From the IMG/VR virus record IMGVR_UViG_3300029305_005420: DNA of 64,000 nucleotides; one strand, 5' to 3'. Under the pieces are notes generated by a model. The model had not been told where the DNA came from. It searched no databases and saw only the letters and a program-made list of their open reading frames with translations. The position numbers and the translations under genes were made by a program. This stretch comes from an uncultured virus (IMG/VR IMGVR_UViG_3300029305_005420) (taxonomy: Duplodnaviria > Heunggongvirae > Uroviricota > Caudoviricetes). Every line of letters begins with the position of its first letter. The stretch's first letter is position 1. Positions 181 through 36,166 of this stretch are shown piece by piece.

Positions 181-204
181 GTCACACTAATAGGAGGTGA
201 TTAT

Positions 205-3763: not shown

Positions 3764-3778
3764 AACACCCACCTATTT

Positions 3779-5552: not shown

Positions 5553-5919
5553 CTGTTTTACTCCTTGTTAATAGTTCCGTGTAATTCAATATTTCAAAAA
5601 CGACAATGTTTTTATTGGGCATCTTAACACCCTCTAAACGATAAGTGCAGCCTAGCTTTATTTCGCTACACACTCTGTTAATTTCTCGCAGTAGCGGTGT
5701 ACTTCTAAGCTCAACATAAGCTCGTCCTGCACCGTCGGGGTATAACCTATGAGCTCCTGCCTCGTTTTTGTCTGTACCCATGATGCCAATAGTTAAATCA
5801 TCGGGGTTAATTATCAGCACCGCATACTTGGGATTATCAAGAGCTACAAGCGTAGAACCGTGGATTCTAATTCTATACCTCTTACAATCAAGCGTTAGTG
5901 CCGGCAACCTGTTATTCAT
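5527..5919 (-). CDS. Hypothetical protein, paralogue of the recombinase C C-terminal domain, copy 1
   Basis: Conserved in copy 2; shares the (I/V)NP..., YR..G..., (I/V)F(D/E) pattern with neighbours. Confidence 0.7.
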   Translation of the reverse strand: MNNRLPALTLDCKRYRIRIHGSTLVALDNPKYAVLIINPDDLTIGIMGTDKNEAGAHRLYPDGAGRAYVELRSTPLLREINRVCSEIKLGCTYRLEGVKMPNKNIVVFEILNYTELLTRSKTDEPIQECK

Positions 5920-5931
5920 AAAAAACACTCC

Positions 5932-6594
5932 TTATTCTGTTGTATTGCTGTGATTATCTCTTTTATCTTTAACCCCAAAAACGGTGTAGCCATCGAAGAT
6001 ATTAACTTGCAATAGCTTTTTGTGCTCCTCCACCGGCAGACCGAATTGATTTCTCCACTCTGCAGGGAAGGTTGGGTTTCTTGATGCTCTTACGGTGCCG
6101 TCCTTACGGCTAACATGCTGAAACACCTCTGTGGCTTTAAGGTCAAAAATAATGAGATAATCGTCATTACTTCTTATTATTTTTCCTACCATTTTATATC
6201 GATACTCCGGGTTCCAGCCCATGAGTTCCGAAATTTTTGCAAAGAAGATACGACAGGTTATATAGCGTGGCATTCTCTTACCGTTAGGCTTTGTGTTACA
6301 CCATAAAAACGAGTCCTTCGCATCTTCTGTACAAGGCCTTACAGCAAGGATTTTCGATGTGGGGTTAACAAGAAACTGTACATAATCAACCTCCGGTAAT
6401 CTCCGCAGACAAGCAGCATTCAAATTAACCTTGCAGTTGTTAAAGGTGATTCCCGGCTCTCGCATATGAGCAAAGAATTCACTTCTTACAACTTGGTATC
6501 CCTCATAAGAAAAATTCTCATCGAAAATAACCTCGACTTCCTCTTCCTTTTTCGCTTGTGGTTTTGTGTCAAAAATGTCGCTTAATTCAGGCAT
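5932..6594 (-). CDS. Hypothetical recombinase-associated protein homologous to the recombinase C C-terminal domain, copy 1
   Basis: Core nearly identical to 61057-61788; aligns to C-terminal third of 6587-8452. Confidence 0.8.
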   Translation of the reverse strand: MPELSDIFDTKPQAKKEEEVEVIFDENFSYEGYQVVRSEFFAHMREPGITFNNCKVNLNAACLRRLPEVDYVQFLVNPTSKILAVRPCTEDAKDSFLWCNTKPNGKRMPRYITCRIFFAKISELMGWNPEYRYKMVGKIIRSNDDYLIIFDLKATEVFQHVSRKDGTVRASRNPTFPAEWRNQFGLPVEEHKKLLQVNIFDGYTVFGVKDKRDNHSNTTE

Positions 6595-8452
6595 CGGTTT
6601 TTCCCTCCTGTATGGTTGTTATAATCCCTCTTATTTCAGAAGCCACTACAGCTTCATTAGGCACCTTTAAGTCCGGTATCGAAGAATAACTTGCAGTCTG
6701 CTGATTTGAACCCCATCGGTTCTCATCGATACCTTTATCCTGTCGCTCGCCGTGTACATAAAAATCATTCCCGAAGGTTTCAGACCAAGCCTCCGGCATA
6801 GCTAAAATTGAATTACCTCTGCGAGGTATAACGGGGTGTACTTCGTCCTCGCCACAATCCTCATCAATGGCTGCGTGAGGCACAAATATCTCGGATTCAG
6901 ATAAATCAAACAAGATGATTGCTTTGTTACCCTGCTCTTTCTTCACCCCTTGGAAACGATATCTAAAGTCCGGATTCCAACCGAACATTTCAAACAGAGT
7001 GCTACAAAAGCCGGTGGCTCTAATGCTTCTAGGTCGTGGGCTTCCGTCTGCTCTGTACTTTATCCATTTAAGGGCATTTTTCTCTGACGATGCACATCCC
7101 ATAATAAATAGGAGTTTCTTTTCTGGGTGTACATACATCTCTATGTAAGAGCTGTGCGGTATACGCTTCACACAAGCCGAGCTAAAGCTGACATAGTTGT
7201 TAGCAAAGTTTATCTGCATCTTATCGTTGCTCTCAAAGAACTGTGACCTTGCTATTTCAAAACCTCTTAAATCAAAATCCCCAGACTCTGCCTCAACTGT
7301 ATATTCCTCTGCTGTTTCAGGCACCTCACCCTTTTTGTAAACAGTAGCAGATGCCGAGTAGTAGTCCTCCGGCTTGAAGGCAGCCCAATGAATATTCACT
7401 CGCACAAATCCCTTAAATGGTCCTTTTTCAATAACCTTAAGCTCTGGCAATGCACCTACACCTTTCGAGCTATTGCTCAACATATGCTGCACCGCTATAA
7501 AGTCATCACGGGTAACAATCGGCTCGTGATGGTCTTTCCAACGATACTGCGTTCTTTCACCCTTGTTTTTACGAGCTTGATGTGTTTTATAGCTTGGTGT
7601 GAATGTCTTGCTTGTAAGCACATCACCGCAGTAACGCTCGTTTCGAAGTATGTTGAGAACCGAGGATGATGTCCATGTGGTATTGTCCTTTTTAGTCCTT
7701 CGTTGTAACTCCGTCAGCTTATCTGCGATTTGCTTGAGCGTGAACCCATATATATACATAAAAAATATTAGCCTAACAGTTAAAGCCTCGTCCTCGTTGA
7801 TGATCAGATTACCGTCTGCATCGTGGTCATATCCAAGCAGAACAGGAGTAAGCAAAATGCCGTGGCTGAATCGCATCTCAATAGAGGCATTCATTATGTT
7901 GCTCTTTATATGGGACTCTTCCTGTGCCATTGAAGCGGTGAAGTTGAGTGCCATCTCACTCTTTGTATCGAGAGTGAAAATGTGCTCCGTTTCAAAGAAA
8001 ACACCTACCGGATTTGGAAGGGCTGCTAACTCATCAACAATCGAAACACAGTCAACTACATTTCTCGCAAATCGAGAAACGCTCTTTGTAATAATCATGT
8101 CAATCTTACCGGCTTTGCAGTCCCTTATCATCTGGTTAAAAGCATCACGGTGATTTAACGATGTGCCGGATATACCCTCGTCTGCGAATATATCAACAAG
8201 CACCCAATTTGGGTTTCTATTAACCATGTCTTCATAGTAGTTTTTTTGTAGCTCGTATGATGAGGTCTGCTGTAGGTTATCAGTTGAGACTCGTACATAA
8301 ACAGCAACTCTTCGGTGAACATCGTCATAAAAGTCGTATGTCTTACTTGCAGGTATTACCTCCACATCGTCAACATCCAAGCCTTTATACCGCTGTATGA
8401 TTTTTGCTTTTTGTTCGTCCCTTGTTAGTGCTCTTTTTTCTGATTCGCTCAT
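6587..8452 (-). CDS. Atypical large serine recombinase C (no zinc ribbon; uncharacterised C-terminal domain), copy 1
   Basis: VYVRVST, KSVSRFARN, LRNERYCGD, HHEPIV; no CxxC after the recombinase domain. Confidence 0.9.
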   Translation of the reverse strand: MSESEKRALTRDEQKAKIIQRYKGLDVDDVEVIPASKTYDFYDDVHRRVAVYVRVSTDNLQQTSSYELQKNYYEDMVNRNPNWVLVDIFADEGISGTSLNHRDAFNQMIRDCKAGKIDMIITKSVSRFARNVVDCVSIVDELAALPNPVGVFFETEHIFTLDTKSEMALNFTASMAQEESHIKSNIMNASIEMRFSHGILLTPVLLGYDHDADGNLIINEDEALTVRLIFFMYIYGFTLKQIADKLTELQRRTKKDNTTWTSSSVLNILRNERYCGDVLTSKTFTPSYKTHQARKNKGERTQYRWKDHHEPIVTRDDFIAVQHMLSNSSKGVGALPELKVIEKGPFKGFVRVNIHWAAFKPEDYYSASATVYKKGEVPETAEEYTVEAESGDFDLRGFEIARSQFFESNDKMQINFANNYVSFSSACVKRIPHSSYIEMYVHPEKKLLFIMGCASSEKNALKWIKYRADGSPRPRSIRATGFCSTLFEMFGWNPDFRYRFQGVKKEQGNKAIILFDLSESEIFVPHAAIDEDCGEDEVHPVIPRRGNSILAMPEAWSETFGNDFYVHGERQDKGIDENRWGSNQQTASYSSIPDLKVPNEAVVASEIRGIITTIQEGKTDA

Positions 8453-8464
8453 AGTATCCTCCAG

Positions 8465-8701
8465 TCATGTATCCTTTACGAATTGTTGTTCACCGGGGGC
8501 AGGTATCACTTCAAATATATCGTTGATGGTACATCCAAGTGCGGTACAAATTCTGACAAGAACATCACTTGATACTGCGACTCCGTCTTTGCCCATTTTT
8601 GTGATAGTAGAGATTGCAACACCTGCTTTCTCGGCAAGTTCTTTCTTTTTCATTTCACGGTCAATTAGTAATTTAAATAGTTTTTTGTAGCTCGCTATCA
8701 C
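8465..8701 (-). CDS. Small XRE/Cro-like HTH regulator (HTH_26-like), present only in copy 1
   Basis: SYKKLFKLLIDREMKKKELAEKAGVAISTITKMGK...ICTAL.C...DI; GTG start. Confidence 0.85.
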   Translation of the reverse strand: MIASYKKLFKLLIDREMKKKELAEKAGVAISTITKMGKDGVAVSSDVLVRICTALGCTINDIFEVIPAPGEQQFVKDT

Positions 8702-12655: not shown

Positions 12656-15427
12656 TTATTGTGATGTTAACTTCTGATACATTTTCATCAGCTCTGCCAC
12701 ACAAGACGACTCAGTTGTGTTCTTAATGTCAAAGCCATAAGCTCGCATAACTGCACGGTCATTATCTTGATGTGCCTTTCTAAGCTCTGGTGGCATATAG
12801 AGCTCATCGTAAAGGTCGGCAAGTGAGCTATCAGGATACAACGCACGAGCATCAAGAATAGCCTGTGCTGTTTGCTCTATCTTTACTTTTTGTTCTTCTG
12901 TCGGATTAGGCCAAGGGAACGTGTTATAAACCATTGTATTTGAATATCTATAATCACTCTTTAATCTGCCACAAACTGTTCGCATCCACGCCATATGAAC
13001 ATTAGAAGTTAATATGCCAAATGTATAAATATCCGCATTATCTACAAAAAACAAAGCATTGGTATAAACCATACCTTCCGGCATAAAACATATTGGAATA
13101 TATTTACGATTTTCAGATGATACTACCGGAACAACAACGCTTTTCCCATTAGGCACCTGTGGTTGAAAATATCTTGATGGAGTATCCTTAAGAGCGGCAG
13201 TTGAAGGGCTCGAATTATTGGCTCTGAACTCATACACAGCGTTTACTCTGCTCCTTATAAAACTACTATCTCTAAGGTCTTTAGGAGAACAATTTTCTAA
13301 GTATAGCACATACTTTTCCTCACCATTATTCAGCAAATCTCTTGCATTATAATATTTTCTTATGTACTTCGCTATTTCAGGTTCTTTATCAATAACTGCA
13401 CGGTATTCTTCTTCATTGCCTACTATAAAATTGCCACCGTCAATTAGTTGTGCTCCCTTTGTCATTTTAGGAATATCACATAGCGGTTTTCCAACTTTGT
13501 CAATAAATATATTATCTGCAGGTGCCAAATACTGATTAATATTACTGCATCTTAAAAACTTTTGATCGGTAAATAACACTTTTTCTAAATTATTATTCTT
13601 AGAGAATCCAATAATAACACAATGGACATGGGCCTTATCGACCGCTTCACTATCCCATTTAAAAGTGTTGTATGCAAAGTTAATATATATTTTTTCTACT
13701 TCAAACAAGTATTTCCATATGGTAAGAGCTTGTTCACCCTGTGTGATGGAATTACTTGAAACAAATGCACAGCAAATATTAGTTCCATTTATATATTTAG
13801 AAGCCTTAAAATACCAACATGCAACATAATCCAACTGTTTATATTTACTTAATGGTATGGTTAAGCTCATATCTTTTTTATTCTCATCTGTACAGCTTCT
13901 CATTCCAACAAACGGTGGATTACCCATAATGTAGTTGAGTTTATCCTTTGGTACTACATCTTCCCAGTCTATACGAAGAGCGTTACCTTCGATAATATTG
14001 GCATAAGAAGTAAGAGGTAAGAAATCAAGGTTCTTATGAACTATCTCCTCGGTTTCTTTCATCATCTGCGATTCAGCTATCCACAACGCAGTCTTAGCAA
14101 CAGTTACTGCAAAGTCGTTGATTTCAAGACCGTAGAATTGACCAATTGACACCTTAATTATACCGCCGGTATCAATAACGATTTGGTCACCGTAGATTTC
14201 TTTTAGTGCTTCGTTCTCAAGGCGGCGAAGACTTATGTATGTTTCCGTCAGGAAGTTACCCGAACCGCAAGCAGGGTCTAAAAATGTCAGACCGCTGAGT
14301 TTATCTCTGAAATCATTTAGTTTCTTTTCTCTCGTTTTTGTAACTTTAGTTTCTTTTATCTGTTCAAACTCTGCCCACAACTCATCCAAAAACAGAGGGT
14401 CTATAACCTTATGGATATTCTCTATAGAGGTATAGTGCATACCGCCACTACGACGAGTTTCAGGGTTCAATGTACTTTCAAATACCGCACCAAATATAGT
14501 AGGACTAATCTCTGACCAGTCGAAGTCGGCACTTGCATTCTCAAGAAGTATCTCCTTAATTTCATCGCTAAACTGAGGAATTATAATATCGGCATCGGCA
14601 AACAGACCGCCATTCACATATGGGAATGACAGCAACATCTCATCCTCGTATTCATCCCTGTCCTCATACTTTGTATCAAGCATACGGAACAGGTCAATCA
14701 ATGCCTTTCTCATTTCACGAGCAGAAAAAGAATTGATGTAATTATAAAACTTATTGTGTCCACCAAAAACACCTGCATCTTCTGCATACAAACAGAATAC
14801 GAGTCGTACACAAAGCATATTTAAGCTCTTAAGAACGGCATCGTCCTCGGCATTGTGGTACTGCTTTAGAATCTCGTCATACAATCTACCAACAATTTTA
14901 CCGGCATCAATAGACACCTTGAGTTCTTTCTTTATGTTCTCATCGTCCTTGTCTACCAAGAACTGCAATCTATAATACTCTTTATGTAAATTTTTCAGTT
15001 CTATATGCTCAGGGTCTGAATTAGGTCTTTCTAAGTCGTATATCAAAAAATCGGTGAAGTTACAAGTTACAATCCATCTTGGACGCTGTGAGTAAGGTAA
15101 TGTTGAAGCATAACGCTGTGCCTGTTGAAAAGGCGTAAGCAAAGACCCATCCGACTGACGGATAGGTTTTTTGAGGTCTTTGCCTTTGCTTTTCTGTTCT
15201 ATTAAAACATGTGTTGAAGGGATATGACCGTCTATAAAACTGGCGTGGTCGAGCTGAGCCTTCTCTTCAAAAATAATAAAATGAGCAGGGTCTTCAACTC
15301 CGTAAACCTTCTGCAAAAGCTCCATCCAAAATGGTTGGCTTTCACCTTTCTCATATCCTCTTTCTGCCCAATACTCAGCAAAGGCTTTTGCTTGTATTCT
15401 CTGTTCTGCTTCTTTCATGTAAATCAC
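12656..15427 (-). CDS. MmeI-like type IIL/IIG single-chain restriction-modification enzyme (N6-adenine MTase)
   Basis: N-terminal FIDG..VLIEQKS nuclease motif, GMHYTS, FLDPACGSGNFL, GNPPF, GRLKSDYRYS, SLADLYD. Confidence 0.9.
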   Translation of the reverse strand: MIYMKEAEQRIQAKAFAEYWAERGYEKGESQPFWMELLQKVYGVEDPAHFIIFEEKAQLDHASFIDGHIPSTHVLIEQKSKGKDLKKPIRQSDGSLLTPFQQAQRYASTLPYSQRPRWIVTCNFTDFLIYDLERPNSDPEHIELKNLHKEYYRLQFLVDKDDENIKKELKVSIDAGKIVGRLYDEILKQYHNAEDDAVLKSLNMLCVRLVFCLYAEDAGVFGGHNKFYNYINSFSAREMRKALIDLFRMLDTKYEDRDEYEDEMLLSFPYVNGGLFADADIIIPQFSDEIKEILLENASADFDWSEISPTIFGAVFESTLNPETRRSGGMHYTSIENIHKVIDPLFLDELWAEFEQIKETKVTKTREKKLNDFRDKLSGLTFLDPACGSGNFLTETYISLRRLENEALKEIYGDQIVIDTGGIIKVSIGQFYGLEINDFAVTVAKTALWIAESQMMKETEEIVHKNLDFLPLTSYANIIEGNALRIDWEDVVPKDKLNYIMGNPPFVGMRSCTDENKKDMSLTIPLSKYKQLDYVACWYFKASKYINGTNICCAFVSSNSITQGEQALTIWKYLFEVEKIYINFAYNTFKWDSEAVDKAHVHCVIIGFSKNNNLEKVLFTDQKFLRCSNINQYLAPADNIFIDKVGKPLCDIPKMTKGAQLIDGGNFIVGNEEEYRAVIDKEPEIAKYIRKYYNARDLLNNGEEKYVLYLENCSPKDLRDSSFIRSRVNAVYEFRANNSSPSTAALKDTPSRYFQPQVPNGKSVVVPVVSSENRKYIPICFMPEGMVYTNALFFVDNADIYTFGILTSNVHMAWMRTVCGRLKSDYRYSNTMVYNTFPWPNPTEEQKVKIEQTAQAILDARALYPDSSLADLYDELYMPPELRKAHQDNDRAVMRAYGFDIKNTTESSCVAELMKMYQKLTSQ

Positions 15428-15627: not shown

Positions 15628-16860
15628 TTAATAACACTTTTTACACGGTTCATAACCCATTGATTCTGCATCAGATTGTGTCACCTGCGATGGGTTCTTC
15701 ATATTGCTACAACTTGACCTACTGTGGTACTTGCTACCGGACTGCGGTATCCATACCATTGAACCACCGGAATTATTATTGTTATTGTATTCCGGCTCCT
15801 CCACCTTTGGAGGGTCTGTTTCAGGCTCTACGCTTGGACCTGAACTGCTACCTGTCGCATAATTAATTGTTATGCCCGGCTGAACATTATAACAATAAAC
15901 ATTGAAGCAAATGCCGTCACCGTCATCCTCGATAGAGTATGCCTCCATCTGAACGCCGCTACAAACAAGGTTACTGCCCTCAAAAATAGGTGTAACTCTG
16001 TACGCTACATGGTTGCCCGTTTCCTTTATATAGTCGGCTACCATATTCTCAAAGGTAAGCATACCCTCGATGTTCATATAGCGTGTACCGGTTATAAGGT
16101 TACTTCTGTTTGCATTTTCCGCAGATAACTGCCAACCTATAAGGTGACATCTATTCCAAAGGTAACCACCGGATATACCATCATACTTTGCCTGTTTCCA
16201 ACCTGACGGTTTTATACTGCTGATACTGCCTCGCTCTTCACCGTCTTTAGGCATTATCTCTTTACCACAAGAAGCAAGTGCAACACCGCATCTGCCGTAA
16301 CTGTCAAGGGAGCTGTATTTCTCATAGCCCTTTGTGGTAAGCTCTGCAGAGCTAAAGTTAGGTATATTATCATTTAATACTGTATACGCTGTTCCTGAAT
16401 ATTCAGGAATGTTTGACGGATTTGCCTTTTCAGGCTCACCGTTTCCAACTGCCGCCTTTGTTGGTGGTACGGTCGTTGGAGGCTCCGTTGTTGGCTCCGT
16501 GGCCGTTGTTGGAGGTTCAGTTGTCGCCTCTGTTGTTGGAGTCTCATCCTTTGTTGCAGGTAGTGTGTATTCGTAATCAGGTATTTGATAATCATCGTCA
16601 TTATCAAACGAGCCTACAGGGGTAAGCATTACGCCCGTGAACAACACCGCTACCGACAGCAAAATAGCTATGCCGCTTTTAATCTTCAGTTTATTCTTAA
16701 GCAGTTCTCTGAGTGGTTTTATAGGCATCATCAACGCCGCCGCTAACACAAAGAAAAAGCTCGAAATGTGCCAACCTGTAGCTAACGCCAAGATAACAAA
16801 AACACCAACAAAGAACCATTGCACTATTTTACCAAACACTCTCAAGGCTCTCTCCTCCAA
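15628..16860 (-). CDS. Membrane-anchored DNA/RNA non-specific endonuclease with C-terminal metal-binding domain
   Basis: N-terminal TM helices, Pro/Thr linker, LD.YGRCG.A, NRCHLIG, NLITGTRYMN, YRVTP; KYH...C...PCKKC. Confidence 0.88.
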   Translation of the reverse strand: MEERALRVFGKIVQWFFVGVFVILALATGWHISSFFFVLAAALMMPIKPLRELLKNKLKIKSGIAILLSVAVLFTGVMLTPVGSFDNDDDYQIPDYEYTLPATKDETPTTEATTEPPTTATEPTTEPPTTVPPTKAAVGNGEPEKANPSNIPEYSGTAYTVLNDNIPNFSSAELTTKGYEKYSSLDSYGRCGVALASCGKEIMPKDGEERGSISSIKPSGWKQAKYDGISGGYLWNRCHLIGWQLSAENANRSNLITGTRYMNIEGMLTFENMVADYIKETGNHVAYRVTPIFEGSNLVCSGVQMEAYSIEDDGDGICFNVYCYNVQPGITINYATGSSSGPSVEPETDPPKVEEPEYNNNNNSGGSMVWIPQSGSKYHSRSSCSNMKNPSQVTQSDAESMGYEPCKKCY

Positions 16861-17258
16861 ACTTCAATAGTGATTTTGTCGTGAGAAGAACCTGCGATGT
16901 CCTCTGTCGATATCTTTTTGAAACCCTCACCCTTTAAGTCAATGTCAAAATACTTGTCAGCAGGATATTTCCTGTTCCAATGACAGAGTACGATTTCAGA
17001 CACACCTTCAGCAGAGTATGGACCATCCTCTATAAAGCAGTAGTCATCAGCTCCGGCTTTATTGATGTAGTCATCATCAGTTATAAAGGAACTGTGTTCA
17101 GTAAACTGTTTAGCAGAGTATGTACTCATCCACAGTTTGCTTCCTGCAGTCATCTCCATAAGCCTCGCTCTAAGGTTGCTATCTTGGGATTGTCTCTTAC
17201 CAAAGAACATCATACCTTTTCCTTTTTCTACGCAGAATATTAATTTCATTTTCTGCAC
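16842..17258 (-). CDS. Conserved hypothetical protein, possibly DHFR-like fold
   Basis: MKLIFCV...GMMF..KRQS.D, WNRKYPAD.YF; coupled to the nuclease gene; fold is a guess. Confidence 0.55.
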   Translation of the reverse strand: MQKMKLIFCVEKGKGMMFFGKRQSQDSNLRARLMEMTAGSKLWMSTYSAKQFTEHSSFITDDDYINKAGADDYCFIEDGPYSAEGVSEIVLCHWNRKYPADKYFDIDLKGEGFKKISTEDIAGSSHDKITIEVWRREP

Positions 17259-17309
17259 CTCCTACCATTATTATAAAAGAATAAAAGTCCAAAAATCCGG
17301 TCTGTGTTT

Positions 17310-17423
17310 GTTTCATCTCAGTAAACGACATACACAAAAAAGTTCACTCATATGAAACCTATCTCCATTATATCGGTTACTCATATGAAACGCAAGCGTA
17401 TTAAAATATTACTAATATGAAAC
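17310..17423. promoter_or_regulatory. Operator-like repeats ACT(C/A)ATATGAAAC x3 plus one inverted variant
   Basis: 17346-17358, 17379-17391, 17411-17423; inverted GTTTCATCTCAGT 17310-17322; between divergent genes. Confidence 0.7.
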
Positions 17424-17430
17424 TTGCGAG

Positions 17431-17805
17431 GTGAGTAGTGTGTTTGATTTTGGTTTAAGAATTCAGGAACTGCGAATGAAACACAACCTGTCACAAAGTG
17501 AATTAGGTAAGAAAATAAACAAAAGCAAAACTGCTATATGGGGGTACGAGAACAATGTTCGAATCCCACCTTTAGAAGCCCTTGTGGATATAGCGGTTGT
17601 ATTAAATGTTTCATTGGACTACCTTGTGGGCATTGATAAGAACGAAATGGTATCCTTAAACGGATTAAGTGACGACCAAAAAACATTAGTGTACACCCTT
17701 ATAGAGGTTCTCAAAAACGACAAACGTCCTAACGAAGGCTTGTCAGATAAAGAAAAAGACACCATCGAGAGCCTCATGGTTGAACTGTACAAGAAACAAA
17801 AGTAA
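17431..17805 (+). CDS. XRE-family HTH regulator
   Basis: LSQSELGKKINKSKTAIWGYENNVRIPPLEAL..IA..LNVSLDYLVG. Confidence 0.9.
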   Translation: MSSVFDFGLRIQELRMKHNLSQSELGKKINKSKTAIWGYENNVRIPPLEALVDIAVVLNVSLDYLVGIDKNEMVSLNGLSDDQKTLVYTLIEVLKNDKRPNEGLSDKEKDTIESLMVELYKKQK

Positions 17806-17808
17806 TCA

Positions 17809-17840
17809 AGCACCGGAGCTTAATGGCTTCGGTGTTTTTC
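17809..17840 (+). terminator. Rho-independent terminator
   Basis: AGCACCGGAGC/GCTTCGGTGTT stem plus T-run. Confidence 0.75.
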
Positions 17841-17953
17841 TATTTATGGCACCTGCGAAAGAAGGCATAACCTTTAATTATAAAATACAACCTGTACCAT
17901 AATCAGGACTTATCGCTGTTTTGAAAATAAACTACAAAATTGTGACTTTTACC

Positions 17954-18004
17954 TTGACAGATGCAAAAAATGCTCCTATAATTAAATTATCGAACATACA
18001 TTCT
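17954..18004 (+). promoter_or_regulatory. Consensus sigma-A promoter TTGACA-N17-TATAAT followed by LexA-box-like CGAACATACATTCT
   Basis: -35 at 17954-17959, -10 at 17977-17982; GAAC-N4-ATTC is one mismatch from the Firmicutes GAAC-N4-GTTC. Confidence 0.7.
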
Positions 18005-18155
18005 ATTTGTATCTTTCGCTCATGCCCCGGAGCGAAGGACACGCAGGTTAAAGAAGTGGAGGCGGTCTAAAAAGAAACACTTACCTTTCCGGTGAATAAT
18101 CAGCACCCATATTAAAAATGAGCACAACTTTTAACGAATGAAAGGAATATGAATA

Positions 18156-18326
18156 ATGAGGAAAGTCAAGTTTGTAAAAACCCCTAAAGAGAAGATTACT
18201 TTAGGTGAGTGTGTAAGAACCGCTACCGGGGAATTGGCATTGAAGGTAAAAAAGCCTAACAAGAATAAATACGAAGTAGTGTCCATGAGCCAGTTAGTTG
18301 AAATGATGGTAGCTGAATCTAATTAA
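18156..18326 (+). CDS. 56-aa basic microprotein (absent from ORF track), paralogue of 19389-19583
   Basis: MRKVKFVKTPKEKITLGECVRTATGELALKVKKPNKNKYEVVSMSQLVEMMVAESN*; RBS AAAGGA. Confidence 0.7.
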   Translation: MRKVKFVKTPKEKITLGECVRTATGELALKVKKPNKNKYEVVSMSQLVEMMVAESN

Positions 18327-18364
18327 AAAACCATAGACCGAGGGTATCCGATATTGCGAGTTAC

Positions 18365-18414
18365 GCCGGCATAAATGTCTTACAGTCCTGTTGTAAGTGT
18401 TTATGCCGGCTTTT
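18365..18414 (+). terminator. Long stem-loop plus T-run, motif shared with 19632-19687
   Basis: GCCGGCATAAAT..CTTACAG / TTGTAAG..GTTTATGCCGGC-TTTT. Confidence 0.75.
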
Positions 18415-18513
18415 GAATTGTCGTTCAAGTCCATTTGTTATATTTTGTCGAATTTTATACTTTTAACAAGATTTTTGTATTCTTTTGTAATATTTGCAAG
18501 AATAATATTTTTC

Positions 18514-18551
18514 TTGACAAATCTACAAATGCGTGTTAAGATATTTGTAGA
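18514..18551 (+). promoter_or_regulatory. Promoter TTGACA-N17-TAAGAT overlapped by inverted repeat TCTACAAAT-N12-ATTTGTAGA
   Basis: Read directly; immediately upstream of an HTH gene, likely autoregulatory. Confidence 0.65.
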
Positions 18552-18576
18552 AACCAAAAGAAAGGGGTCGAGCACC

Positions 18577-19374
18577 TTGAGTCAAGAATTTAATAAACAA
18601 CTTATGTTAGATAACATCTCCTTTATGCTCAAAGAGCTGGGCAAGAAAATCGGTGAGTTTGAAGCTGAAGCCGGTGTTAGTGCAGGGTATGTGTCCCGTA
18701 TGAGCAAAGAGGACTCCAAAAAACCTGCTGTAGATTTTGTAATGAAAGCGGCAGAGGCTTTGAAAATAAGTGTCTCCACCCTTTTATCCGCTGACTTGTC
18801 TGTTATGTCTCCCACAGAAAGATACCTTGTAGGTTTTGTTGAAAAACTAACAAGTGACACAAGAGAGAGTAAATTAGCTTGGGATAGACAATCGCAGGAT
18901 TACCTTAATGATTTACCCTTGGACGACAACGGTGAACCATATCATCCTCTCTTTGATTTTGAACACTTCCAATTAACCTATGAGGACGAAAGCACAAAAA
19001 CCTTCAGAGAATGTGTATTTAAGTCTCGCACATTTGAATATTTTACCATACCTTATCAGTCAAGCTACGCTCTTAGAATGAAAAACGGTGCTATGCTGTA
19101 TGTGATGAATATCACTATAAGAAAGGAAAACAGAAACGAAGAAACGGATTATGCAAAAGAAATATGGATGTACAAGCCGGGCGTAGGAAGACAGTTCTTA
19201 TGTAGTAACAAGGAAGATTCTACCCTCGCATCTCTTATTGATGACCTTTATAAAGCTATTTTTGATTACTCAAAACATCCTATGGTAAAGAAAGGATTAA
19301 AAGAAGCCATCGACGCCTTCTTTAATGATGACCTTGAAGATGACCCCGTGTCAGACGACGGCTTGCCGTTTTAA
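18577..19374 (+). CDS. HTH (XRE-like) protein with large uncharacterised C-terminal domain; candidate prophage repressor
   Basis: KKIGEFEAEAGVSAGYVSRM..KP.VDFVMKAAEALKISVSTLL; TTG start after AAAGGGG. Confidence 0.75.
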   Translation: MSQEFNKQLMLDNISFMLKELGKKIGEFEAEAGVSAGYVSRMSKEDSKKPAVDFVMKAAEALKISVSTLLSADLSVMSPTERYLVGFVEKLTSDTRESKLAWDRQSQDYLNDLPLDDNGEPYHPLFDFEHFQLTYEDESTKTFRECVFKSRTFEYFTIPYQSSYALRMKNGAMLYVMNITIRKENRNEETDYAKEIWMYKPGVGRQFLCSNKEDSTLASLIDDLYKAIFDYSKHPMVKKGLKEAIDAFFNDDLEDDPVSDDGLPF

Positions 19375-19388
19375 TAGGAGGGTAATAG

Positions 19389-19583
19389 ATGAGGACTAAT
19401 ATGCTTAAAACTCCCGGTGGCATAAATCTCGGTCTTACCTACTTTAAAAATGATGGCAAACTTTACATCGAAGTTAAACAAGGCAAGAAAAAAGAAGAAG
19501 TGCCATGGGAACACTTGGCCGTAAACGCCTTTAAAAATGCTACTCATAAAGCAGAGAACCCACCCGATGAGGCTCTCGCTTAA
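19389..19583 (+). CDS. 64-aa basic microprotein, paralogue of 18156-18326
   Basis: RBS AGGAGG; KTP..I.LG......G.L...VK...K..E.V pattern shared. Confidence 0.75.
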   Translation: MRTNMLKTPGGINLGLTYFKNDGKLYIEVKQGKKKEEVPWEHLAVNAFKNATHKAENPPDEALA

Positions 19584-19631
19584 AAACTTAATACTGCTCT
19601 TTGCTACGAGCGAAATCGATTAACGAATTAC

Positions 19632-19687
19632 GCCGACATGAGCAAGCTACAGTTAAATTCTGTAGTTTGTTTGTGTCGGCTTTTTTT
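19632..19687 (+). terminator. 21-bp G-U-rich stem-loop plus T7
   Basis: GCCGACATGAGCAAGCTACAG / CTGTAGTTTGTTTGTGTCGGC-TTTTTTT. Confidence 0.8.
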
Positions 19688-19719
19688 ATTTTCTAAACTC
19701 TTAAAAAAATATATTCAAG

Positions 19720-19885
19720 CCTGAGTGTACATCAGGGCGAGGATACGGATATTGCACCTAAACCTTTTACCGGAGGTGGAGGTGTGAAATCGGTACCCTT
19801 ACCTTTGTGCACCCATTTTTAGCCGAGGTTTGGTACCGATTGGTATCAGACCTATTTTTATGCCTCGTCCTGACTGCATCAGCGG
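19720..19885 (+). ncRNA. Putative structured 5' leader of the sigma-like gene
   Basis: TCAGGGCGAGG pairs with CCTCGTCCTGA; inner ATCGGTACC/GGTACCGAT stem; ends just before the RBS. Confidence 0.45.
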
Positions 19886-19897
19886 AAAGGACCAGTC

Positions 19898-20287
19898 ATG
19901 AAAGTAGTTTACAAATTCGAAAAAGAAACAGTTGAAATCGAGGTGTCAGAGAAGTGGGCAAACATAGTCTTTGACCTCGACCGTCAAGAGTACAACAACG
20001 ACCACAAAGAAACACGCCGCCATTGTTCCTTCGAAGTGTATAGCTGTGAAGGTCACGAAGTAGCTGACAAAACAAATGTCGAGGAAGAGGCTCTTCAGAA
20101 TGTCGATTACAAAAACCTATATAAAGCGTTGGAAATGCTCGAACCTCGTCAGCGTTACCTAATTGAGGAGCATTTCTTTAAGGGTCGCACAAAGACCGCT
20201 ATTGCCGAGGAAGAGGGCGTTACAAAAGCGGCTGTTCGACAGGCGATTGAAAGAGCTGTAAAAAAATTAAGAAAATTTTTAGTTTAG
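19898..20287 (+). CDS. Sigma-70 region 4 / ECF-like phage sigma factor or activator
   Basis: LYKALEMLEPRQRYLI...FF.G.T..AIA.EEGVTK.AV...I.RA.KKL. Confidence 0.85.
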   Translation: MKVVYKFEKETVEIEVSEKWANIVFDLDRQEYNNDHKETRRHCSFEVYSCEGHEVADKTNVEEEALQNVDYKNLYKALEMLEPRQRYLIEEHFFKGRTKTAIAEEEGVTKAAVRQAIERAVKKLRKFLV

Positions 20288-20288
20288 A

Positions 20289-20330
20289 CCGTTTACTTTT
20301 GCCTTTCCCGTGGCTTAAGGGTGAAGGGGA
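20289..20330 (+). promoter_or_regulatory. Motif CCGTTTACTTTT-N7-CCGTGGC-N-TAA-R-GGT, candidate phage-sigma promoter (second copy at 54754)
   Basis: Ungapped match between the two sites. Confidence 0.6.
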
Positions 20331-20355
20331 TAAAAAATCCAACCCCTTGGAAAGG

Positions 20356-20565
20356 ATGATAAGAGTGAAGCACAAATTAAAAATAAGTGTTTCAGACAAA
20401 GCCAACAACGGCGGTGTAGTAGCTTGCAGGAAAGTCTCAATGAGACAGAGACTCCTCGACAAGCTACTCGGCCCCGTAAATCAGGTAACTGTCATAGTTC
20501 CCGGACAAACCGTTGATTGCATTGCTATCAGCGAGGTTCCTGAAGGAGGTTCTTGTGGTGAGTAA
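20356..20565 (+). CDS. Conserved phage hypothetical protein
   Basis: KHKLKISVS......GVVACR.V..R..LL..LLG....VTVIVPG..V; RBS GAAAGGA. Confidence 0.7.
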   Translation: MIRVKHKLKISVSDKANNGGVVACRKVSMRQRLLDKLLGPVNQVTVIVPGQTVDCIAISEVPEGGSCGE

Positions 20566-20854
20566 GATTAAACTCCTTCTTGATGTTGTTGAGAACCTGC
20601 ACAGCCTTGCCGACAGTATCCACGCTATCGCAAATGCAGTTATGGAAAACGACACCGAGGATACCGAACCGGAAGCTCCTACCGTAACAGAACAGCAAGT
20701 GCGAGATGTTCTCGTCAGAAAATCGCAGGACGGTTTCAAAGACGAATGTCGAGCCTTGATTCTAAAGTACGGAGCTACCAATGTTACCAACCTTAGTCCT
20801 CAACACTATGCTGAGGTGCTAAAAGAAGCGGAGGCGATTGGTAATGCCACCTAA
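20558..20854 (+). CDS. Phage hypothetical protein (often labelled rrp5-like)
   Basis: SKIKLLLDVV..L.SLADSI; VR.VL..KS..G.....RALI.KYGA...L.P.HY. Confidence 0.7.
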   Translation: MSKIKLLLDVVENLHSLADSIHAIANAVMENDTEDTEPEAPTVTEQQVRDVLVRKSQDGFKDECRALILKYGATNVTNLSPQHYAEVLKEAEAIGNAT

Positions 20855-21983
20855 TGCACACGCCATACTCTCCGCATCATCAGCTCACAGATGGATGAGC
20901 TGTACCCCATCCGCACGACTGGAGCAAGACTTCGAAGACAGAGAAACAGAAGCGGCGGCAGAAGGTACGGCGGCTCACGCCCTTTGTGAACACAAACTCA
21001 AACGAGCCTTGAAGATGCGTTCTACAAAACCGGTCAGCAAATACGACTGTGACGAAATGGACGAATACACAGACGACTATGTGCAGTTTGTTTTAGAGTC
21101 CATAGAAAATGCAAAACAGTACTGCAAAGACCCCACCATCCTTATTGAACAGAAGCTCGATTTTTCTTGTTATGTTCCTGACGGATTTGGCACCGGTGAC
21201 TGCCTTATTGTTTCCGATAAAGTCTTGCACATTATCGACTTTAAATACGGTCAAGGCGTTTTAGTTGAAGCTGAAAATAACCCACAGATGATGCTTTATG
21301 CTCTCGGTGCTCTGAAGCTGTTTGATTTCATTTATAACATCGACACAGTTTCAATGACCATCTTTCAACCCCGTAGAGAGAATGTCAGCACATGGACTAT
21401 AAGCGTTTCAGAGCTTCAACAATGGGCAGAGGACACACTTAAACCTAAAGCGGAACTTGCTTTTTCAGGTAACGGTGAGTTCGTCCCCGGTAGTTGGTGT
21501 CAGTTCTGCAAAGCGGCTGTTAAATGCCGAGCAAGAGCTGAAGATAACTTAAGACTCGCACAACATGAATTTAAACTGCCTCCCCTCCTTACAGATGCAG
21601 AAATCGAGGACATACTCTTAAAGCTCGATGACCTTACCAAATGGGCAAAAGAGATACTCGCCTATGCACAAGAGTCAGCAATAAGCCACGGCAAAGAGTG
21701 GCACGGATTCAAGTTGGTTGCAGGTCGCACAAACCGAAAATACACAGATGAAACCGCTGTTGCTCAAGCGGCTATGGATGCCGGGTATAAGGACATCTAT
21801 AAAAAGAGCCTCATCTCAATAACAGAGATGGAAAAGCTCATGGGCAAAAAGACCTTTTCTGAAGTGTTGGGCAACTTCGTAACGAAGCCCCAAGGCAAAC
21901 CCACGCTTGTTCCGACATCCGATAAGCGTGCGGCTATAAATGTAACGGGTGCAAACACAGATTTTAAAGAAATAAAGGAGTAA
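20844..21983 (+). CDS. DUF2800 family PD-(D/E)XK (Cas4-like) nuclease
   Basis: HA.LSASSAHRW..C, GTAAH, FGTGDC, IIDFKYG, N.QMMLYALGA, WCQFC....C. Confidence 0.88.
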   Translation: MPPNAHAILSASSAHRWMSCTPSARLEQDFEDRETEAAAEGTAAHALCEHKLKRALKMRSTKPVSKYDCDEMDEYTDDYVQFVLESIENAKQYCKDPTILIEQKLDFSCYVPDGFGTGDCLIVSDKVLHIIDFKYGQGVLVEAENNPQMMLYALGALKLFDFIYNIDTVSMTIFQPRRENVSTWTISVSELQQWAEDTLKPKAELAFSGNGEFVPGSWCQFCKAAVKCRARAEDNLRLAQHEFKLPPLLTDAEIEDILLKLDDLTKWAKEILAYAQESAISHGKEWHGFKLVAGRTNRKYTDETAVAQAAMDAGYKDIYKKSLISITEMEKLMGKKTFSEVLGNFVTKPQGKPTLVPTSDKRAAINVTGANTDFKEIKE

Positions 21984-30600: not shown

Positions 30601-31764
30601 ATGAAAAAATATAAAACTGCGGAAAGTGTCTGCAAAGGACATCCCGATAAGCTCTGCGACATTATTGCAGACAGCATTTTAGACGAATGTCTCATGCTCG
30701 ACAAGTCATCTCGTGTGGCTTGTGAGGTTATGGCCACCGGTCACAAAATCATCGTAGCCGGTGAAATCACCTGTAGCAAATATGTAAATATCAGAAGTGT
30801 AGTTCGTAGGGTTTTATGTAGCATAGGCTATAACCCTTTTGCTTATTTAATTTATGTATATTTACACAAACAGAGTCCCGACATCAAAAACGGTGTAGAT
30901 GTAGCTCTTGAACACAGACAAGGTGATACCACTAAGTGGTATGGTGACCTCGGTGCAGGTGACCAAGGAACTGTGTATGGCTACGCTACCGATGAATGTG
31001 CAGAGATGATTCCCCTCTCTCTTATGTATGCACACAAGATTTGTGAAAGGCTCGACTCTGTAATGAGTGATGGCATCATCAAGGGCATCGGCCCTGACGG
31101 AAAAGCACAGGTAACTATTGAATACGAAGATGAACAACCCAAGCGTGTTAGCTCTATCATCGTTTCAGTTCAGCACAAAAAAGATGTACAGCTTAAACAG
31201 CTCCGTGCAGATATTATTTCAAATGTTCTGTGGCCTGTGTTCGAGCAGTTCCCTTTCGATGATGACACCGAGATTTTAATTAACCCTTCCGGCAGATTTG
31301 TCAAAGGTGGTCCTGCCGCCGATACCGGTCTTACGGGTAGGAAAATCATCGTGGATACATACGGTGGTCACGCCGCACACGGTGGCGGTGCCTTTTCAGG
31401 TAAAGACCCTACAAAGGTTGACCGAAGCGGTGCATACATGGCACGAGCAATTGCTCGCAACATCGTGGCCTGTGGTTTTGCAAAGAGATGTCAGGTTGCT
31501 ATTTCTTATGCAATCGGCAAAGCAGACCCTGTGGCTGTTGAGATTGACACCTTCGGTACAAGCATTGCTTCAGAAGAGATGCTGAAAAAGGCAGTGCTTG
31601 AAGTGTATAACTTAAGACCGGCGGCAATCATAGAAGCTCTTGGACTCCGCCGTCCAATTTATGCAGACACAGCTTGTTACGGTCACTTTGGCAGACTTGC
31701 TAAGTGGGAGTATTACTCAAAGCTCCCTGAACTCAGAAAGGCGGTATACAGCTATGGTGATTGA
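30601..31764 (+). CDS. metK: Phage-borne S-adenosylmethionine synthetase
   Basis: ESV..GHPDK.CD, GAGDQG, DGKAQVT, GLTGRKIIVDTYGG, GGGAFSGKDPTKVDRS. Confidence 0.97.
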   Translation: MKKYKTAESVCKGHPDKLCDIIADSILDECLMLDKSSRVACEVMATGHKIIVAGEITCSKYVNIRSVVRRVLCSIGYNPFAYLIYVYLHKQSPDIKNGVDVALEHRQGDTTKWYGDLGAGDQGTVYGYATDECAEMIPLSLMYAHKICERLDSVMSDGIIKGIGPDGKAQVTIEYEDEQPKRVSSIIVSVQHKKDVQLKQLRADIISNVLWPVFEQFPFDDDTEILINPSGRFVKGGPAADTGLTGRKIIVDTYGGHAAHGGGAFSGKDPTKVDRSGAYMARAIARNIVACGFAKRCQVAISYAIGKADPVAVEIDTFGTSIASEEMLKKAVLEVYNLRPAAIIEALGLRRPIYADTACYGHFGRLAKWEYYSKLPELRKAVYSYGD

Positions 31765-32983
31765 GAAAAAGAAAACCGCTGAACTGCTCCCTGCCGACTA
31801 CAACCCTCGTAAAGATTTAAAACCCGGTGACAAGGAATACGAAAAACTGAAACGCTCCATTGAGCAGTTTGGTTATGTCGAGCCGGTTATTTGGAACAAG
31901 GCGACCGGCAGAGTTGTTGGCGGACACCAAAGACTTAAGGTCTTAATTGATATGGGTATCACCGAGGTTGAGTGTGTGGTTATTGAGCTTTCCGAGGAAA
32001 AGGAAAAAGCTCTCAATGTTGCACTCAATAAAATCTCCGGTGATTGGGATAACGATAAACTCGCTCTTTTGATTGCTGACCTGCAAGGTGCGGATTTTGA
32101 TGTATCTCTAACCGGCTTTGATGATCAGGAAATTGAATCGTTATTCAGAACAGATACTGAAGCAGGTGTTAAAGAGGATGACTTCGATGTTAATGAAGAG
32201 TTACAGAAACCCACCTTCACAAAAGCAGGTGACATTTGGCAACTTGGAAATCATCGTCTTATCTGCGGTGACAGCACCAAAGCTGAAACCTACGATGCTT
32301 TGATGTGCGACAAAAAAGCAAACCTTGTTGTAACCGACCCTCCGTACAATGTTAACTACGAAGGCACCGCCGGCAAAATCAAAAACGATAACATGGAAAA
32401 CAGCAAGTTCTATCAGTTCCTGCTTGATGCCTTTACCAATATGGAAAAGGTTATGGCTGATGACTCAAGCATTTATGTATTCCACGCTGACACCGAAGGT
32501 CTCAACTTTAGAAAGGCTTTCTATGATGCCGGCTTCTATTTATCCGGTACCTGTATTTGGAAAAAGCAGTCCTTGGTGCTTGGCCGTAGTCCTTACCAAT
32601 GGCAACATGAACCTGTGCTGTTTGGTTGGAAAAAGAAAGGTAAGCACAAATGGTACACCGGCAGAAAAGAATCAACCATATGGGAGTTTGATAAACCTAA
32701 AAAGAATTCAGACCACCCAACCATGAAACCTATTCCGCTTGTTGCATACCCGATACTAAATTCAAGTATGAGCAACTCTATTGTTCTCGACCCATTCGGC
32801 GGTAGCGGTAGCACCCTGATTGCTTGTGAACAGACAGATAGAGTTTGCTATACTATTGAACTGGACGAGAAGTTCTGCGATGTAATCGTAAAGCGTTACA
32901 TTGAGCAGGTCGGTTCGTCTGAAAATGTGTCCGTGGTTCGTGACGGCTTGACATATAAATTTGCAGAACTCCAAACCGACTAA
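31754..32983 (+). CDS. ParB-like domain fused to N4/N6 (beta-class) DNA methyltransferase
   Basis: YNPRK..VGGHQR; TDPPYN, HPTMKP, DPFGGSGST. Confidence 0.93.
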   Translation: MVIEKKKTAELLPADYNPRKDLKPGDKEYEKLKRSIEQFGYVEPVIWNKATGRVVGGHQRLKVLIDMGITEVECVVIELSEEKEKALNVALNKISGDWDNDKLALLIADLQGADFDVSLTGFDDQEIESLFRTDTEAGVKEDDFDVNEELQKPTFTKAGDIWQLGNHRLICGDSTKAETYDALMCDKKANLVVTDPPYNVNYEGTAGKIKNDNMENSKFYQFLLDAFTNMEKVMADDSSIYVFHADTEGLNFRKAFYDAGFYLSGTCIWKKQSLVLGRSPYQWQHEPVLFGWKKKGKHKWYTGRKESTIWEFDKPKKNSDHPTMKPIPLVAYPILNSSMSNSIVLDPFGGSGSTLIACEQTDRVCYTIELDEKFCDVIVKRYIEQVGSSENVSVVRDGLTYKFAELQTD

Positions 32984-33106
32984 ACCGTTGTGTCTATTAC
33001 ACAATCTATCAGGAAATAAAACTACATTGTTTTGTAGTATTACATCTTGATAAAATGTCGTTTTAGAGCGAATATGTACCTACCAAAATTAAAGGAGGAC
33101 ACAACG

Positions 33107-33784: not shown

Positions 33785-33998
33785 AAGAACTCTTGAGTTC
33801 TTAAGGGAAACTTTCACGGAAGGTACAAGGGTAGAGCTTTTGGCTATGGATGACCCCTACAACAAAAAGCTGAAACCGGGTTGTAGGGGTACCGTAAAGA
33901 GCGTTGACGATATGGGAACCATACATGTTTCTTGGGACTGTGGCTCTTCCCTCGGAGTGGTTTATGGCGAAGATTTATGTAAGAAAATAACCGAATAA
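33768..33998 (+). CDS. DUF4314 family protein
   Basis: GTRVEL..M.DP....PG..GTV..VDD.GTIHV.WD.GSSLG..YGED. Confidence 0.85.
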   Translation: MKMPNERTLEFLRETFTEGTRVELLAMDDPYNKKLKPGCRGTVKSVDDMGTIHVSWDCGSSLGVVYGEDLCKKITE

Positions 33999-36153: not shown

Positions 36154-36166
36154 GGAGGAAAAAACA

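Follow-up and report, generated by a model that had tools for sequence, protein, structure and literature searches.

The 64,000-nt stretch of DNA analysed here (hereafter the window) belongs to an uncultured virus of the Caudoviricetes (IMG/VR record IMGVR_UViG_3300029305_005420) and carries, at the left regulatory end of a prophage, a compact module around positions 17,954 to 19,897. The module contains genes for two microproteins, ORF56 and ORF64, each of which is followed by a copy of a structured RNA element ending in a terminator hairpin, and it lies directly upstream of a gene for a sigma-like regulator. The microproteins belong to a conserved protein family and the element to a conserved, covarying RNA, and the two are strictly linked at this phage switch. 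The module consists of the following features:

17954..17982, + strand: promoter P1 (TTGACA-17-TATAAT; 12/12 matches)
17991..18003, + strand: LexA (Cheo)-type box CGAACATACATTC (CGAAC-N4-ATTC), starting 9 nt past the -10 hexamer
18013..18067, + strand: conserved part of the ~170-nt 5' untranslated region (UTR) of ORF56, with a hairpin at 18013-18038 (GCCCCG loop) and the box TGGAGGCGGTC at 18057-18067
18156..18326, + strand: ORF56 microprotein, 56 aa, net charge about +6
18310..18420, + strand: RNA element copy 1, degenerate (cmsearch 43.5 bits, E 1.7e-7)
18514-18542, + strand: promoter P2 (TTGACA-17-TAAGAT with TG; promoter scan)
18577..19374, + strand: 265-aa protein with a TTG start and an N-terminal XRE-type helix-turn-helix (HTH) domain (Pfam HTH_3 0.0015, below cut-off)
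19389..19583, + strand: ORF64 microprotein paralogue, 64 aa
19548..19690, + strand: RNA element copy 2, complete (cmsearch 100.2 bits, E 2e-20), with hairpin A at 19549-19581, stem P1 at 19595-19612, stem P2 at 19616-19626, terminator at 19632-19680 and U-run at 19681-19687
19705..19897, + strand: structured leader of the sigma-like gene, with a 5' hairpin, an internal hairpin and T-run (19826-19853) and a covarying long-range helix
19898..20287, + strand: sigma-70 region-4-only protein, 129 aa (Sigma70_r4_2 2.9e-10, residues 73-124; phrog_11138 3.2e-34)

A preliminary description of this DNA, made from the sequence alone, had noted ORF56 as an unannotated open reading frame (ORF) and had regarded the two microproteins as similar to each other and basic; all three observations hold. 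ORF56 is a real gene, with four related clusters that are 84-86% identical and an AlphaFold2 (AF2) model with a predicted local distance difference test score (pLDDT) of 92.6. ORF64 has one other cluster (63% identity). BLASTP finds nothing between ORF56 and ORF64 at E<=100; profile-profile comparison aligns them over 50 columns with 89.8% probability (E 1.8e-6) and a 63-aa protein in the related locus L071 bridges them (1e-7 to ORF56, 1e-3 to ORF64), which identifies them as distant paralogues. A search with a ten-sequence profile against 1.84 billion representatives recovered 134 cluster representatives (50% identity) at E<=1e-3, including 18 at <=1e-10. Nearly all 134 matches are 51-120 aa long and eight are tandem two-domain forms; five matches of at least 520 aa, which align over a short stretch only, are probably spurious. 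The family consensus is roughly IYTP-x3-IPIGE-x6-DG-x-YALRIKKP-x5-E-x4-L, within which an R/K-I-K-K-P patch is conserved, and 32/35 members are net basic.

The family carries no useful name in protein-cluster annotations, and the 35 members scanned have no match in Pfam, PHROG or NCBIfam (best E 0.011, 0.018 and 0.022, respectively). Similarly, no match to PDB sequences was found at E<=1, and the sole match in the ESM Atlas, at 0.75, is to an unnamed viral cluster and offers no more than a lead. Searching viral contigs with ORF56 alone yielded two spurious partial matches (L067, L068), which were discarded; an ORF56 alignment gave no locus in metagenome contigs, and an ORF64 alignment none in viral or metagenome contigs. 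The ORF56 model consists of four strands and a helix (beta4-alpha), and a tandem form is modelled as a compact pair (pLDDT 89.0, predicted template modelling score 0.79). This topology of four antiparallel strands plus a helix agrees with the PC4 / Pur-alpha / Whirly-like single-strand-binding fold. The best VIA-align match, a weak one, is PC4 (6ycs_A; Z 3.5, 47 residues aligned, root mean square deviation (rmsd) 3.2), closely followed by Sub1, Pur-alpha and a bacterial PC4 homologue, and the tandem model weakly matches the SsgA-like 3cm1_A (Z 4.0, 88 aligned, rmsd 6.5). These weak neighbours share the predicted topology and bind single strands, which offers a lead rather than a classification. 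Judging from its basic charge, the conserved R/K-I-K-K-P patch, the modelled beta4-alpha fold, the tandem forms and its single-strand-binding neighbours, the microprotein looks like a nucleic-acid binder.

The RNA element is ~140 nt long, starts at the microprotein stop codon and consists of hairpin A, stems P1 and P2 and the terminator. Hairpin A is flanked by AAGCAG and CGCTT and has a loop ending in GA, stem P1 is formed by GCTC-loop-GAGC and stem P2 typically by GAAC-loop-GTTC, and the terminator is a hairpin of ~20 bp with a sequence-conserved base (GCCGRCAYGAGC ... GTTTGTGYCGGC) followed by a T-run, which is present in all 19 aligned copies. In the window, the complete copy 2 folds as a whole at -50.9 kcal/mol (z -6.9), and its terminator hairpin (-34.2 kcal/mol, z -8.7) followed by 7 U qualifies as an intrinsic terminator. 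Copy 1 is without hairpin A and the 5' arm of stem P1, and has kept the CGAG / P2-like / CGAGTTACG segment and a terminator hairpin at 18365-18410 (-26.9 kcal/mol, z -5.9) with the weak T-run TTTTGAATT (UUUUG). A terminator scan lists the second hairpin (19632-19680) only. The preliminary description had recognised a shared motif and terminator after both ORFs, and the 16-mer CGARTTACGCCGRCAT indeed occurs exactly twice in the window (18357 and 19624), against 0.02 expected and with none of 100 shuffles reaching two; its CGAG..CGAT..CGAGTTACG alignment likewise agrees with that of the covariance model. Both of the long hairpins it described are stable, but the T-run of the first is weak. An exact scan of IMG/VR with CGARTTACGCCGRCAT returned 44 chance matches in unrelated, mostly high-GC sequence, none with the hairpin.

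Linkage between the two components was assessed in 19 IMG/VR loci (numbered with the prefix L) picked by protein similarity alone. Although the microproteins are only 37-59% identical (11 distinct sequences), the element begins at the stop codon in 19/19. A covariance model built from 19 element copies detected the element with cmsearch on the + strand behind 30/31 family gene copies with downstream sequence (E<=1.7e-7), the miss being L071. Most of the 30 matches are model seeds (19) or near-duplicates of them, with L084 (46 bits) as an independent case. This covariance-model search had been proposed in the preliminary description as a check on the pairing of ORF and motif, and it found the element behind all of these family genes except that of L071. 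Conversely, an RNA-first search of 151 genomes identified 3 sites in 2 genomes, all beside family genes; the protein profile matched 9/401 genomes at E<=0.01. Rfam 15 has no match in the whole window; below threshold, the highest score on the element is for the trpB motif, with 31.4 bits where 59 are required. In L088, the RNA element is intact (103.9 bits) behind a microprotein gene (1494-1674) that has no ATG, GTG or TTG where its start is expected and neither a promoter nor a LexA box like those of its relative L080; this gene may be a decaying copy.

The stems had also been described as covarying, which is borne out in an alignment of 22 sequences that was fitted to the model: paired cells make up 89.7%, compared with 78.8% in shuffles and 34-46% in slid registers, and 23/34 pairs show compensatory changes (6/9 in hairpin A), with 0/500 shuffles reaching the observed score. 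Two G.U pairs are conserved in the terminator. Furthermore, the non-coding element is better conserved than the adjoining coding sequence. Copy 2 of the window shares 80.8% identity with its L070 counterpart, compared with 66.0% for ORF64, 53.9% for the HTH gene and 66.2% for the sigma-like gene, and a comparison of L097 with L098 gives 84.3% for the element against 59.7% for the microprotein gene. In several lineages (window 19548-19583; L070 2266-2301; L089, L098 and L101), AAA or CAA stands in place of the TAA that usually precedes GCAG, so the C-terminal tail of the microprotein is hairpin A translated (in ORF64, its last 11 codons), and the thing conserved is the RNA sequence. What lies upstream of the microprotein gene also varies: some loci have a homologue of the 265-aa HTH protein there, others a 315-aa HTH protein or a polymerase, and others nothing, which leaves the RNA as the constant partner.

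Seven promoter-like sites were predicted in 17000-21000, compared with 8.0 +/- 2.8 in shuffles. Their number is thus not enriched and only the quality of promoter P1 stands out, the sole perfect site among them and confirmed as the preliminary description had reported it. Its hexamers recur in L070 and L080. The LexA-box-like site reported together with it is present as CGAACATACATTC, with one mismatch to CGAAC-N4-GTTC, and recurs in relatives, but by itself it is no better than chance, as the window contains 6 such sites against 11.2 expected. LexA operators of Firmicutes were defined as a GAAC-N4-GTTC palindrome or one of the clostridial variants GAACnnnnGTTT and GAACnnnnnTTC, and the GAAC-ATAC-ATTC of the window box fits the latter, which is included among the LexA motif classes used for Clostridia in PMC4234289. 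At the same position after the -10 hexamer, L070 carries CGAACATATATTC, L071 the perfect box CGAACATTTGTTC and L080/L081 the perfect box CGAACAATAGTTC, while L102 has a perfect box, GAACATATGTTC, between the -35 and -10 hexamers of a promoter ~550 nt upstream of the microprotein gene. LexA-type boxes within strong promoters upstream of family genes were found in four lineages, the position 9 nt past the -10 hexamer is likewise kept in four, and the box in the window is a putative LexA operator overlapping the start region of promoter P1.

Downstream of promoter P1, RNAalifold on 4 aligned loci predicts 8 pairs in the 5' UTR of ORF56, 4 of them with a compensatory change, a sample too small for a firm call. 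Within this region (17983-18155) the hairpin stem varies, the GCCCCG loop is kept in 4 loci and the GGAGGCGGTC box is conserved. A tiny ORF starting with MEAV is open in L070 and L071; the window version stops after four codons.

Upstream of promoter P1 lie a further regulatory gene and its terminator:

17431..17805, + strand: XRE-family HTH protein, XRE124 (Pfam HTH_3 5.2e-14; PHROG transcriptional regulator or repressor families)
17808-17837: terminator after the XRE124 gene (terminator scan)

XRE124 is 124 aa long from its GTG start (121 aa as called elsewhere) and is a candidate maintenance repressor without an S24 domain. Three 21-nt direct repeats with the core ACTCATATGAAAC and a spacing of 32-33 nt (17338-17423) precede its gene and are likely operators. 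The HTH proteins encoded at 8465, 8871, 17431 and 18577 all lack the S24 autopeptidase domain of CI-type repressors, and no Peptidase_S24 match was found in the 72 ORFs of the window and related loci that were scanned, a set that left out short or overlapping ORFs. Among these ORFs, the earlier statement that the window is without an S24-type CI repressor therefore stands. Promoter P2, which drives the genes for the 265-aa HTH protein and ORF64, has its spacer and -10 hexamer spanned by a 9-bp inverted repeat, TCTACAAAT (18522-18530) -N12- ATTTGTAGA (18543-18551), which was read straight off the sequence and is probably an operator for a dimeric repressor. The C-terminal domain of the 265-aa protein matches no known family, and its homologues immediately precede the microprotein gene in L070, L097, L104 and L105.

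The gene at 19898-20287 is the first of the replication and early block. As noted before, the hairpin at 19632-19680 separates it from the HTH and microprotein genes. No sigma-70-type promoter is predicted between that terminator and the gene, and the only prediction between promoter P2 (18514) and the gene is a weak 9/12 site within the HTH gene. The intervening leader is 87.1% identical to that of L070, the best-conserved stretch of the region (the gene behind it is 66% identical), and has a minimum free energy (MFE) of -77.3 kcal/mol (z -6.4). For six sequences, RNAalifold predicts 34 pairs, 14 of them compensated; the long-range helix forms between the stretch that follows the 5' hairpin and the one that follows the T-run, and a GUCCU in the latter, 3' segment can pair with the ribosome-binding site. 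Counterparts of the leader occur in L070 (2815-3011), L071 (5165-5371), L092 (2832-3041) and L065/L066 (2790-3003). The leader, which has no Rfam match, is a candidate cis-regulatory RNA in its own right. Taken together with the terminator of copy 2, its features place the regulator behind two terminators and a possible translational lock.

A context comparison of 19 loci, the window included, identified a co-directional sigma-like gene after the element in 6/19 (window, L070, L071, L080, L081 and L092). Other small genes occupy the slot before the terminator and the sigma-like gene elsewhere: L046, L048 and L049 encode a Cys-rich small ORF (CPNC), L089 and L097 contain small ORFs with a K-x-V-C-D-I-S motif, and another of these small ORFs has ~52 aa. 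A small protein upstream of the sigma-like gene in L045 was considered as a family member and rejected (0 hidden Markov model matches).

The element has a second way of folding. When the RNA is cut just before the 3' arm of the terminator, the MFE structure is without stem P1 in 4/4 lineages (window, L097, L105 and L080). Instead, GCUC of the P1 5' arm pairs with a GAGC inside the terminator 5' arm, and stem P2 is lengthened by pairing of the P1 3' arm with the terminator base. This arrangement accounts for the repeated CGAGC word and, perhaps, for the conservation of the G.U pairs. Among the 22 sequences 83.1% of cells are paired in it, compared with 27-49% in slid registers; the fold was derived from one of these sequences, which favours the result. 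These results show a conserved pairing potential, which could be used as a switch.

On this basis, we consider it possible, at a probability of roughly 0.4, that the microprotein, supplied under SOS control and binding RNA, adjusts how far transcription reads through its own terminator toward the region-4-only regulator. The module would then be the DNA-damage-responsive front end of the lytic switch in a Ruminococcus-type prophage whose repressor candidates are without a self-cleaving domain. In the lysogen, host LexA would occupy the box over the start region of promoter P1, as the sequence and the conservation of the box suggest; upon DNA damage, LexA would be removed and ORF56 made. The microprotein, probably as a dimer, could bind purine-rich, GAG-containing loops and strands of the complete element behind ORF64, and binding might favour the alternative fold with its GCUC:GAGC pairing and its pairing of the P1 3' arm with the terminator base. 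Transcripts from promoter P2 would consequently pass the terminator into the leader and the 19898 gene and open the early/replication block. The preliminary description's proposal that the microproteins bind the RNA ahead of the terminator and allow read-through, with the SOS-controlled copy as trigger of the lytic cascade, is thereby supported in part. It had additionally assigned positive feedback to the second copy, for which there is no support, as ORF64 lies upstream of its terminator and read-through does not raise its own transcription.

Several observations weigh against this reading. The copy behind the SOS-driven ORF56 is the degenerate one (43.5 vs 100.2 bits), the LexA-driven microprotein gene of L071 is without any element, and the remaining loci have no LexA box within their fetched flanks. 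ORF64 is co-transcribed with its own target, which obscures the logic of its control. The terminators are very stable (-27 to -34 kcal/mol) and the full-length RNA strongly prefers them (-50.9 and -60.2 kcal/mol), so the alternative fold would need a stabilising factor; moreover, the pairs specific to this fold are mostly invariant with few compensated, and pair 75/95 is unpaired in 10/22 sequences, so covariation says little about it. All structural matches of the microprotein have Z <5, and Foldseek found none at E<=1e-3 (best E 0.28). The sigma-like protein of the preliminary description does match region 4 but not, by Pfam, Sigma-70 region 2; it is therefore not a complete sigma factor and is better named a region-4-only regulator. 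Downstream contexts also differ. In 7/19 loci (L096, L097, L098, L101, L103, L105 and L106) a convergent gene for a Cro/C1-type HTH protein (216-231 aa) has its stop codon abutting the terminator, with the sigma-like gene divergent from it, and 6/19 loci show neither a sigma-like nor a convergent gene within the fetched flank. Finally, 22 loci fetched via the sigma-like protein (38-50% identity) have a hairpin and T-run 60-100 nt before the gene, and none of their 2092 ORF segments matches the microprotein, although many upstream flanks are short. For the relatives with a convergent gene, read-through would cause antisense transcription of the Cro/C1-type repressor-like gene, which would also favour lysis.

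A related proposal, which we regard as doubtful, is that the pair forms a self-contained and previously unseen ribonucleoprotein switch in which a PC4/Pur-like, single-strand-binding microprotein remodels a bistable 3'-UTR RNA with a terminator at its end, and that this is the main DNA-damage wake route in gut Clostridia prophages without cleavable repressors, acting by read-through into the sigma-like regulator or antisense into the repressor.

The main rival, on balance unlikely, is that the microprotein is an SOS-induced antirepressor that inactivates XRE124, the 265-aa HTH protein or the convergent Cro/C1-type protein, with the RNA being the 3' end of the mRNA and serving as an insulating terminator or stabiliser. 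Control of a small gene by a LexA-box promoter where the phage has no S24-type repressor follows the same logic as the LexA-controlled antirepressors of Salmonella prophages described in PMC3121763, and small antirepressors recur in the systems treated in PMC10432266 and in the AimX preprint (10.1101/2025.11.23.689978). The module is always at the lysis-lysogeny region, and the microprotein gene often comes after an HTH gene, with stop and start codons close or overlapping. A predicted complex of XRE124 and ORF56 (score 0.01, mark 0.32) is evidence neither way. However, this explanation leaves unaccounted for a ~140-nt 3' RNA with three extra hairpins that covaries, is better conserved than the protein and follows 30/31 gene copies. 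Moreover, the microprotein is basic rather than acidic, and its upstream partner changes between loci (HTH265 type, 315-aa type, Y-family polymerase or none) while the RNA stays constant.

Alternatively, though improbably, the RNA itself could be the effector, as a stable 3'-UTR-derived small RNA or ribonucleoprotein. It might be directed against the convergent repressor transcript or serve as a sponge, and the microprotein would then chaperone or protect it. No other part of the module is as well conserved as the RNA, its G.U pairs are conserved and its stems very long. Furthermore, in the 7/19 loci with a convergent repressor-like gene the element lies exactly at the 3' end of that gene and has no T-run on that strand, so the element and repressor-like transcripts would overlap. 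Yet candidate seed loop sequences differ between clades, the window is without a convergent gene, and neither a promoter nor a processing site for a separate RNA was seen.

Still less credible is a role of the microprotein as a single-stranded DNA- or DNA-binding accessory of damage tolerance or replication, as partner of a Y-family polymerase and with an unrelated 3' RNA. Y-family polymerases are typically encoded by SOS genes, and SOS control would be expected of such an accessory. A Y-family (UmuC-like) polymerase gene is located just upstream of the microprotein operon in 7/19 loci (L091, L092, L097, L098, L103, L105 and L106), directly adjacent in L092, and the weak structural neighbours bind single-stranded DNA. 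No Cheo boxes were found near the polymerase genes within the fetched flanks of the IMG/VR loci. Against this role, no Y-family polymerase is found near the gene in the window, L070, L071 or L080, and linkage to the RNA and the switch region is far tighter. Lastly, the two copies might be a simple duplication or two ordinary terminators without regulatory meaning. Terminators are to be expected behind short genes and copy 1 is decaying, but this very remote explanation is disfavoured by an element that is conserved and covarying across phages with 37-59% identical proteins, has higher identity than the neighbouring genes, and shares a 16-mer that occurs twice against 0.02 expected.

The module belongs to a siphovirus-type prophage of a Clostridia host, with relatives in Ruminococcus and Clostridia metagenome-assembled genomes, which spans ~17.3 kb to the endolysin gene at 52061-52924. 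Genes for a DUF2800 nuclease, an Enc34-type single-strand-binding protein, a family-A polymerase, a VapE primase/helicase and SNF2 are followed by those for a DUF1492 sigma-r4 late regulator, HNH, terminase, portal, capsid and tail proteins. A blastn search of 17300-20300 against a phage collection gave no match. Sequencing runs matching the stretch comprise 11 DNA-type rows (animal faeces or sheep metagenomes) and none listed as RNA. Two direct ~8.4-kb modules (78-8466 and 55271-63660; 75-79% identical) lie on either side of the region, each encoding three large serine recombinases, a metallophosphoesterase and DUF6551; these may represent a pair of related mobile elements, or a prophage whose recombinase module sits beside a relative. 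Left of the prophage, a complete MmeI-family type IIL restriction-modification enzyme and a secreted non-specific endonuclease are encoded at 12656-15427 (-) and 15628-16860 (-). Between the small and large terminase genes (30601-36978), genes for S-adenosylmethionine synthetase, a ParB-fused DNA methylase, an amidoligase, a GGACT-like enzyme, Nmad4 and DUF7698 suggest a DNA-modification module.

How gut Firmicutes prophages with non-self-cleaving repressors sense DNA damage is largely unknown, and the module described here provides a concrete, testable candidate: a widespread unnamed microprotein family tied one-to-one to an unnamed structured RNA at a lysis-lysogeny switch, with a LexA-box promoter in several lineages. 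If the pair controls termination, it would represent a new protein fold and a new RNA class for bacterial antitermination, and a handle to predict or manipulate how prophages of rumen and gut Clostridia are induced. Irrespective of how the pair works, the RNA motif can with good support be put forward as a new Rfam family, and the protein as a new Pfam family. The literature searched contained no description of the microprotein or the RNA, which is not proof of their being unpublished.

Protein-dependent antitermination at an RNA site overlapping a terminator is known from BglG, SacY and LicT, with their RAT site, and from HutP. As in BglG/LicT/HutP systems, the conserved RNA of the window sits immediately 5' of an intrinsic terminator and extends into its 5' arm, the unit also encodes a candidate binding protein, and an alternative pairing would block the terminator, as predicted by folding in 4/4 lineages with little specific covariation. 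Unlike those regulators, the microprotein (56-64 aa) carries neither a CAT/PRD nor a HutP domain and belongs to no Pfam family, its gene lies upstream of its own site in the same transcript, and the RNA, its putative target, has three extra hairpins and a 20-bp terminator stem. Lambda N is an unfolded arginine-rich peptide that acts processively and requires boxB and host Nus factors. Similar to the lambda N/nut system, a small basic phage protein would here carry early transcription past a terminator to the next regulator tier as a timing device, but the microprotein is modelled as a folded beta4-alpha domain and its RNA site is fused to one terminator. Coliphage 186 Tum is reportedly a LexA-controlled antirepressor of a prophage without a cleavable repressor. 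Gifsy phages likewise have LexA-controlled antirepressors in prophages without cleavable repressors, as described in PMC3121763. The window shares with both the LexA box on a small-gene promoter and the repressor candidates without S24; those antirepressors have no sequence or family relation to the basic microprotein and no linked structured RNA.

As in the Com-mom system of phage Mu, the microproteins are encoded just upstream of a structured leader with a ribosome site that may be hidden (here 19705-19897, with an internal terminator and ahead of the sigma-like gene), but ORF56 and ORF64 are without zinc-ribbon cysteines and the RNA paired with them is a distinct element that precedes the leader. 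Arbitrium-type modules are presented in 10.1101/2025.11.23.689978 as a regulator, a small ORF and a downstream effector, and modules of a transcription factor and a small ORF (TF-smORF) are treated by Silpe et al. (PMC10432266). These resemble the window in having an HTH regulator gene beside a very small gene at a lysis-lysogeny switch, but differ in that the microprotein has no signal peptide, is predicted to be folded, belongs to a different family and is linked to an RNA. The general kind of system, a phage regulator at a terminator-linked RNA under SOS control, is known, while its parts are new to the libraries searched.

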